Of a stretch of 6,377 nucleotides of DNA, positions 3,789 to 4,505 are shown one piece after another (the stretch's first letter is position 1; the number at the start of each line of letters is the position of its first letter). The notes below the pieces were generated by a model. The model made no database searches. It was not told the DNA's origin and saw only the letters and a list, made by a program, of their open reading frames with translations. The stretch is taken from IMG/VR virus record IMGVR_UViG_2645727555_000011; one strand, written 5' to 3'. A program made the position numbers and the translations under genes. This DNA comes from a virus (Duplodnaviria; Heunggongvirae; Uroviricota; Caudoviricetes).

Positions 3789-4505
3789 TTATCCGCCCGC
3801 ACCATTAACCGTTACTGTACACGCATCAGAGGTAATGCTCTGCGGCTGTTCTGCAGAATCCGTTACCTCGCAGGTATAAGCCCCCTTATCACCTGACTGC
3901 GTATTGGCTTTACTGAAAGTGTCAGTAGTCTGTCCCTCTACCGGCTGACCATCCTTCTTCCAGGCGTGTTTATAAGGCGGCGTTCCCCCGTTGACACTGA
4001 CTGACATTGTCAGCAGCGCACCGGTATTCACGGTAAGTGTCTTCTCCGGATTTTTCACAAACGCCAGCGGTACCACATAGGACACCGGTTTACCCTTCAG
4101 GCGAAGTGAAAACGTTGCAGCCACCACGCCGTTGGTACCGGATGACCAGGTGTGCTGACGCACTTCCGCCAGGAACTTAAAGCCCTTACCGGACGGAAAC
4201 TGCACCTTAAACGCATACACCGTGTCATTGTCATAGGCATCACGCAGGGCGTTCTGGGCCTGATTCAGATAAAAATTACCCGACATGGAAATCTCGGACG
4301 ACGCCCCCAGACCGTTGATGTTCTCCTGCTCTGTGGAGCAGAGCGTGGTCACATCAATATCCTGTTTCTGACCGGCGGTGAACTGGACTTCCTTGATGGT
4401 GCAGTCCAGGCGCAGATATTCCGCCTTATCCATAGTTTCAGCAGTCACCGGGGCAGATGAAATCATCACCTGCGTCAGCTGTGAGCGTTCATACAAAGCA
4501 GACAT
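3789..4505 (-). CDS. Major tail (tube) protein with in-frame C-terminal Ig-like domain
   Basis: 238-aa ORF directly upstream of the chaperone pair, with a strong AGGAGG Shine-Dalgarno-like sequence 4 nt from the ATG. The N-terminal roughly 150 aa look tail-tube-like. The C-terminal roughly 85 aa (..GTPPYKHAWKKDGQPVEGQTTDTFSKANTQSGDKGAYTCEVTDSAEQ..TVTVNG) carry the W-x-K-D-G ... Y-x-C-x-V pattern of Ig-like domains commonly appended to phage structural proteins. Confidence 0.82.
   Translation of the reverse strand: MSALYERSQLTQVMISSAPVTAETMDKAEYLRLDCTIKEVQFTAGQKQDIDVTTLCSTEQENINGLGASSEISMSGNFYLNQAQNALRDAYDNDTVYAFKVQFPSGKGFKFLAEVRQHTWSSGTNGVVAATFSLRLKGKPVSYVVPLAFVKNPEKTLTVNTGALLTMSVSVNGGTPPYKHAWKKDGQPVEGQTTDTFSKANTQSGDKGAYTCEVTDSAEQPQSITSDACTVTVNGAGG

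Follow-up and report, generated by a model that had tools for sequence, protein, structure and literature searches.

The gene at the centre of our analysis encodes, with a probability that we put at about 0.9, a two-domain major tail-tube protein of an enterohaemorrhagic E. coli (EHEC) prophage, composed of a tube domain, a linker and a mobile accessory immunoglobulin (Ig) domain of the I-set type. The window, namely the whole stretch of 6,377 nucleotides of viral DNA analysed here, would derive from a phage combining an HK97-like head with a lambda-like tail, within the BP-4795/Stx1a/Stx2 long-tailed group of enterohaemorrhagic E. coli. Judging from homology, residues 1-140 would polymerise into the stacked hexameric rings of the virion tail tube, around the tape-measure protein, and residues ~146-235 would form an I-set type beta-sandwich, held on a linker of ~5 residues and exposed outside the tube on every subunit.

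Gene, genomic context and tube domain

The tail-tube gene is a single unbroken ORF, preceded by an AGGAGG sequence 5 nt 5' of the ATG at 4505, and the order of the genes around it is that of a canonical siphovirus tail module (Table 1). It occupies the position of a tube gene, with the tail terminator upstream and Phage_TAC_1, Phage_tail_T and then the tape measure downstream, and it is separated from the chaperone gene by an intergenic gap of 5 nt. In the E. coli RefSeq records inspected, the same 717-nt gene is annotated as 'major tail subunit'. The GenBank record of BP-4795 reports a longer tube gene of 846 nt (L001 6001-6846), with an upstream start overlapping the preceding gene, whereas the window ORF opens at 4505; the 717-nt gene, having an ATG with AGGAGG, is favoured over the 846-nt version by the RefSeq E. 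coli records and by the window ORF.

Table 1. Positions of the annotated features in the window, listed from its first to its last nucleotide
Feature	Position	Strand	Basis or remark
Tape-measure gene, 5' part, running off the window start		-	Annotations of related records
T-like ORF	3104..3385	-	Phage_tail_T
Lambda G-like tail assembly chaperone gene	3409..3783	-	Pfam Phage_TAC_1, E 2.3e-61; adjoins the tube gene downstream
Mosaic patch: Ig C-terminal half (~aa 184-238), 5-nt gap, first ~20 chaperone codons	3725..3955	-	Strongly diverged relative to L004/L005, the second common E. coli allele
Major tail (tube) protein gene	3789..4505	-	Single unbroken ORF, 238 codons + stop
Immunoglobulin-superfamily domain (I-set/Ig_2/Ig_3), aa ~146-235	3801..4070	-	Pfam, PDB sequence matches, AlphaFold2, Foldseek
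Linker from tube to Ig, aa 141-145 (VSYVV)	4071..4085	-	Alignment and model; tube-only relatives end around here
HK97/lambda-type tail-tube domain, aa 1-140	4086..4505	-	Ends at the near-invariant ...FSLRLKGKP
Tail terminator/gp17-like gene (Tail_completion_gp17)	4572..4916	-	5' of the tube gene
HK97 gp10-like gene	4913..5359	-	
Head closure gene	5356..5706	-	
Head-tail connector gene	5717..6043	-	

The N-terminal part was identified as a major tail tube protein, as the preliminary description had proposed, by the match of PHROG 158 ('major tail protein') over aa 1-237 (E 1.6e-117) and by the Pfam family Phage_tail_2, which scored above its cut-off on aa 50-141 (25.4 against 23.8 bits); Phage_TTP_11 (25.2 against 28.4) and Phage_TTP_12 remained below theirs. 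Fold comparison was in accordance with this assignment, the best full-length Foldseek matches being the lambda gpV entries 7t4f_A (E 1.6e-9), 8iyk_D and 7t2e_A, with further tube matches to lambda gpV 8k36_A and to the tail core of phage YDC107 (9mfe_A). In the AlphaFold2 model the tube part is predicted to consist of strands and a helix at aa 82-93, consistent with the bent beta-sandwich and single helix of a tube protein. The stretch of aa 45-68, modelled with pLDDT <50, corresponds in position to the long beta2-beta3 loop of lambda gpV, which is disordered in the monomer. Confidence rises across the junction between the two parts, from a block mean of 79 at aa 131-140 to 87 at aa 141-150 and to at least 92 beyond (blocks of 10 residues).

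Tube and Ig parts are read in one frame, with no stop between them in the ORF list, and no canonical X_XXY_YYZ heptamer was seen by eye at aa 138-155. The fusion had been described as constitutive, and the single 238-codon ORF, with no frameshift, bears this out; since the two parts share one ORF, every subunit should carry the Ig domain, barring processing or unrecognised recoding. An Ig domain appended by frameshift, as in SPP1, was rejected because tube and Ig are one continuous ORF. A frameshift-hidden Ig domain in the tube-only relatives was likewise discarded: in Leclercia L002 the stop of the tube gene lies only 8 nt before the start of the chaperone gene, thus leaving no room for such a domain. 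The tape measure of BP-4795 is 1080 aa long (3243 nt), and lambda, with one of 853 aa, has 32 hexameric rings; scaling from lambda by tape-measure length, we estimate that a tail might comprise ~40 rings and ~240 Ig copies. [quoted passage not shown]

Other features of the locus deserve mention. A terminator-like hairpin (CCCGC-CGCGT-GCGGG, then TTTTTT; 4528-4542, minus strand) lies between the tail terminator and the tube genes, ~10 nt upstream of the tube-gene ribosome-binding site, and the GenBank record of HK75 has a terminator at the equivalent position. The chaperone pair (3104..3783, minus strand) resembles the lambda G/GT recoding unit: a slippery heptamer A_AAA_AAG occurs in the correct phase at 3412-3418 (minus strand), just 5' of the stop of the G-like ORF, where a -1 shift would fuse the G-like to the T-like ORF in a 226-aa product, and PHROG 14766 (224 positions) matches both chaperone halves, in order. 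The junction between the T and the tape-measure genes is a second variable insertion point of the tail module. The window has no gene there; its relatives have a small extra one, which in E. coli 2012EL-2448 (L004 311-724) codes for a hypothetical protein of 137 aa and in Leclercia and HK75 (L002 5181-5369 and L007 2206-2394, respectively) for a YebO-like/HK97 gp15-like protein of 62 aa. Finally, the segment 6040..6377 (minus strand) holds the C-terminal ~110 residues of a gene leaving the window end, which is BP-4795 ORF59, annotated as hypothetical. Its product gave a weak match with CBM_5_12 (E 2e-4; 21.7 bits, below the cut-off of 26.2) and also matched PHROG families carrying the label 'portal protein', at their C-terminal ends. 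One possibility is that the product serves as another carbohydrate-binding appendage of the virion surface, located on the head.

Assignment of the C-terminal domain

The C-terminal segment is confirmed as a true Ig-superfamily domain. Three Pfam models exceeded their gathering cut-offs on aa 149-233, namely Ig_2 (32.3 against 27 bits), Ig_3 (31.2 against 30) and I-set (29.7 against 23.7), and the model 'ig' reached 22.9, with a cut-off of 21.8, on the isolated 85-aa segment. Searching PDB sequences with phmmer retrieved phage Ig-domain proteins, tandem-Ig tail proteins included, at E-values from 2e-33 to 1e-13. The AlphaFold2 model, built on 88 homologues, had a mean pLDDT of 80, with block means of 92-96 for aa 151-230, and predicted for aa 148-234 nine strands arranged in an all-beta domain apart from the tube, in keeping with the Greek-key beta-sandwich of ~90 residues typical of the superfamily. 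When the Ig part was compared by Foldseek, it superposed on the Ig-like C2 domain of human MALT1 (3bfo_A) with a target-normalised TM-score of 0.87 and 1.8 Å over 90 columns, and on a chain from the capsid reconstruction of phage Moo19 (9d7z_K) with an rmsd of 1.4 Å; the probability was 1.00 for many I-set proteins, such as titin, Dscam, sidekick and CD22. Two of the checks proposed in the preliminary description, a profile search and a structure prediction, thus gave the outcome that it had anticipated.

The motifs on which the domain had originally been recognised, W-x-K-D-G followed by Y-x-C-x-V, are present as W182-K-K-D-G186 (3948-3962) and as D206-K-G-A-Y-T-C212 then E-V (3864-3890), and they are well conserved in the Ig-bearing tube sequences (W182, in strand C, in 57 of 58; Y210 and C212, in the strand-F motif, in 53 of 58 each). 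The position first given to the domain (3792-4046, aa 154-238) needs instead to be amended: the domain is indeed there, but its start had been placed ~8 residues late, cutting off strand A, since the first Ig strand is E148-151, and 3801..4070 describes it better.

The canonical disulfide between strands B and F is missing, as strand B (aa ~164-171, LLTMSVSV) lacks a cysteine. The Ig domain contains only two cysteines, C212 (3870-3872) and, in strand G, C229 (3819-3821), the latter kept in 51 of the 58 Ig-bearing tube proteins. An obligate C212-C229 disulfide seems unlikely from the aligned sequences, since wider relatives keep one cysteine or the other: only C229 is retained in the P0070 group, and the PDB relatives have either of the two. 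Membership in the superfamily stands nonetheless, the B-F disulfide being common in it but not obligatory, and missing also in related phage Ig domains.

In the Pfam search of the protein, no match with Big_1, Big_2 or fn3 was obtained at E <= 0.1. Lacking a profile match, assignment to the Big_2 class (lambda gpV, T5 pb6) or to the FN3 class (SPP1 gp17.1*) was rejected, although the architecture is alike. None of the NCBIfam naming models matched.

That the last ~85 residues might be integral to the tube fold, their likeness to Ig motifs being coincidental, had been named in the preliminary description as a refuting case, and is an idea to which we attach practically no weight. Tube proteins are likewise rich in beta structure, and nothing beyond this was found in its support; the three Pfam Ig models above curated cut-offs, the PDB sequence matches down to E 2e-33 and the predicted separate, high-confidence beta-sandwich, lying at 1.4-1.8 Å from known Ig domains, all speak for an independent domain, as do the complete tube-only homologues of ~146-158 aa.

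Distribution, relatives and exchange of the Ig domain

Nucleotide identity of the gene is 99.3-99.9% with the major tail genes of Stx1a-, Stx2a- and Stx2c-converting phages, BP-4795, phage 1717 and O157:H7 prophages. Of 5426 complete E. coli genomes, 1245 (23%) carry the gene, with up to 8 copies per genome, often several per EHEC genome and 2906 copies in total. In E. coli strain 1449 (L006 1452-2100) the major tail gene is truncated at its 5' end next to the IS66-family element ISEc23 and is left as a pseudogene; this appears to be a decayed prophage copy.

The closest named relative is BP-4795 ORF64 (UniProt Q6H9U0), a putative major tail subunit with 235 of 238 residues identical (the differences from the window protein being V20A, D26E and P153L), 99.3% nucleotide identity and the same flanking genes. 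A published review lists in a table BP-4795 ORF64 and HK97 gp12 as I-set-bearing major tail proteins, in a section that draws on the survey by Fraser et al. 2006, and reports that ~70% of enterobacterial siphovirus tail-tube proteins carry Ig-like domains (PMC9022992). With a 99%-identical protein in that table, the finding is therefore already known for essentially this protein: the occurrence of an Ig domain on this tail-tube protein has been described before, and the feature is common.

HK97 gp12 and the HK75 major tail protein (Hendrixvirinae, I-set) share with the window protein the two-domain architecture and the neighbouring genes; identity with the HK75 protein is 67% over 234 aa, and both genes have the terminator-like hairpin upstream. 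Relative to HK75 and HK97, divergence is greater in the Ig domain than in the tube, and the window protein is longer by four residues at its C-terminus (GAGG). Lambda gpV (PDB 7t4f, 6p3e) follows the same design, an N-terminal tube and one in-frame C-terminal Ig-like domain, with G/GT chaperone and tape-measure genes downstream as in the window phage; however, identity is only 13-17%, and its appendage, solved by NMR (Pell et al. 2010), is of the Big_2 family, whereas the window domain is of the immunoglobulin superfamily. In SPP1, gp17.1* similarly bears on a siphovirus tube a C-terminal Ig-like module that is dispensable, but there an FN3 domain is added by a +1 programmed frameshift to about a quarter of the subunits, while in the window a domain of another Ig family is in frame in every product.

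Likeness extends to proteins other than those of the tube. The T5-like phage EPS7 has a head decoration protein whose C-terminal Ig domain is 51% identical to that of the window, the remainder of the protein being unrelated. In the PDB sequence search the window domain matched the 'Hoc-like' decoration proteins 8zvi_a (E 4.6e-15) and 5lxk_A (E 1.2e-13), and T4 Hoc (E 5e-3). The Ig domains of T5 pb10, EPS7 (PDB 5lxk, 8zvi) and T4 Hoc are surface-exposed accessory modules like that of the window, but they sit on capsids, and the N-terminal parts that anchor them bear no relation to the tube domain. By tblastn the Ig domain was matched in 1674 phage records, in features annotated as tail, decoration, whisker or fibritin-like.

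With the first 148 residues as query, 278 relatives were retrieved, 87 of which were aligned. The Ig domain is present in 57 of these tube homologues (233-251 aa) and missing in the other 30, which are complete (146-158 aa) and end 5-10 residues past the near-invariant ...FSLRLKGKP (K139-P140); the comparison of relatives proposed at the outset thus showed the domain to be variably present. Identity of the tube is alike in Ig-bearing and Ig-less homologues (77% and 75%), and across homologues the Ig domain has a mean identity of 49%, the tube domain one of 77%. Neighbour-joining of the tube domains gave a tree in which Ig-bearing and Ig-less sequences are intermingled, with at least 16 changes by Fitch parsimony over the 87 sequences, a rough count as the tree carries no bootstrap support. 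A tube-only gene in an otherwise syntenic module is that of Leclercia adecarboxylata (L002). The frequent absence of the Ig domain from near-identical tubes argues that tubes of this family can assemble without it; it is dispensable for a working tail and, given its frequent natural loss, it could be nearly neutral in some hosts.

The boundaries of the exchange were visible in pairwise comparisons. L009, with the Ig domain, and L002, without it, have nearly identical tube domains and identical DNA up to the ...LKGKP codons; they differ from there on, across the Ig segment and the gap between the genes and over the initial ~17 codons of the chaperone, and become identical once more at ...FRHKTV of the chaperone. 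In the comparison with the other common E. coli allele (L004/L005), identity in 60-nt windows falls to 58-88% at ~3725-3955, being 93-100% elsewhere over ~3 kb; the C-terminal half of the Ig domain itself stands at 58-83%, with flanks at 95-100%. The right-hand junction lies within the chaperone gene, at ...GFRHKTV, both for the L009/L002 pair and for the L004/L005 patch. Against L004/L005, dS is 0.53-0.61 in the Ig part and 0.07-0.08 in the tube part, a ~7-fold difference, with omega at 0.2-0.26. The raised dS together with an omega of ~0.2 points to recombination and not to positive selection: the patch is a recombinational import, subject to purifying selection and not hypermutated. The interleaved tree, the L009/L002 junctions, the identity trough against L004/L005 and the occurrence of the same Ig type on unrelated scaffolds all support the notion, already advanced in the preliminary description, of a hotspot for modular exchange, here a recombination-prone cassette. 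In our reading the Ig domain is a mobile module: homologous recombination, with one boundary at the conserved tube end, ...FSLRLKGKP, and the other in the 5' portion of the chaperone gene, inserts it, removes it or substitutes another version.

Divergence clusters in the C-terminal half of a domain presumed to be exposed, and among homologues the Ig domain has a lower mean identity than the tube. Both could also be read as the mark of directed hypermutation by a diversity-generating retroelement, or of positive selection, strong and favouring new receptor specificities, acting on the variable Ig patch in place of recombination. We consider this very improbable: synonymous divergence is raised alongside the non-synonymous one, the diverged patch crosses the gap between the genes and reaches into that of the chaperone, nothing resembling a template repeat of the variable region was found within the 6.4-kb window, and none of the nine ORFs scanned outside the tape-measure region gave a reverse transcriptase match. 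The omega of ~0.2 argues for a conserved fold and function and not for a receptor interface of the arms-race style.

Possible role of the Ig domain on the tail

The role of the Ig domain is most likely accessory and non-essential: its many copies may establish weak contacts with carbohydrates of the bacterial surface or of the gut mucus, raising adsorption efficiency. Binding to carbohydrate or mucus is, for this domain, a hypothesis, the one standard in the field, put forward for phage Ig-like domains by Fraser et al. 2006 and, for Hoc, by the mucus-adherence model. According to a 2021 review the carbohydrate hypothesis "remains to be experimentally verified", and no binding data were found in the literature for any I-set tail-tube domain.

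The main rival to adhesion is a structural role, in which the domain would mainly stabilise the tube, or assist its assembly, through contacts between neighbouring subunits. The Ig domain of lambda gpV, the best full-length fold match of our protein, lies along the tube axis and touches the beta1-beta2 loop of the adjacent subunit, and without it activity is 100-fold lower, though tails still form; moreover, purifying selection on the Ig domain fits any conserved role. Nevertheless, we regard a mainly structural function as unlikely, albeit worth keeping in mind, for the domain of lambda comes from another Ig family and about one third of close tube homologues, some with near-identical tubes, do without an Ig domain in otherwise syntenic tail modules. 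Furthermore, head decoration and whisker proteins bear this Ig type too, a distribution suggestive of a generic surface module. The preferred reading of an accessory adhesion module may accommodate some structural contribution, as the Ig domains might also add contacts between subunits in the way the lambda gpV Ig domain does.

A more specific proposal, to which we give little credit at present, is that the Ig domain and the 5' part of the chaperone gene constitute a swappable specificity cassette, whose alleles, on the tails of Stx-converting and other E. coli prophages, would bind different glycans of the host surface or of the gut mucus. If this were true, swap or loss of Ig alleles would tune where toxin-carrying phages persist and which strains they lysogenise.

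The Ig-like domains of phage tails are well catalogued; the protein here described is among the catalogued cases, and it is carried by Shiga-toxin-converting phages. What our analysis adds is a clearer definition of the exchange boundaries, which run from the conserved ...LKGKP end of the tube to the 5' portion of the chaperone gene; it brings no new biology. Should the Ig domain bind glycans of the mucus or of the cell surface, it would bear on the persistence and spread of Stx phages in the gut.
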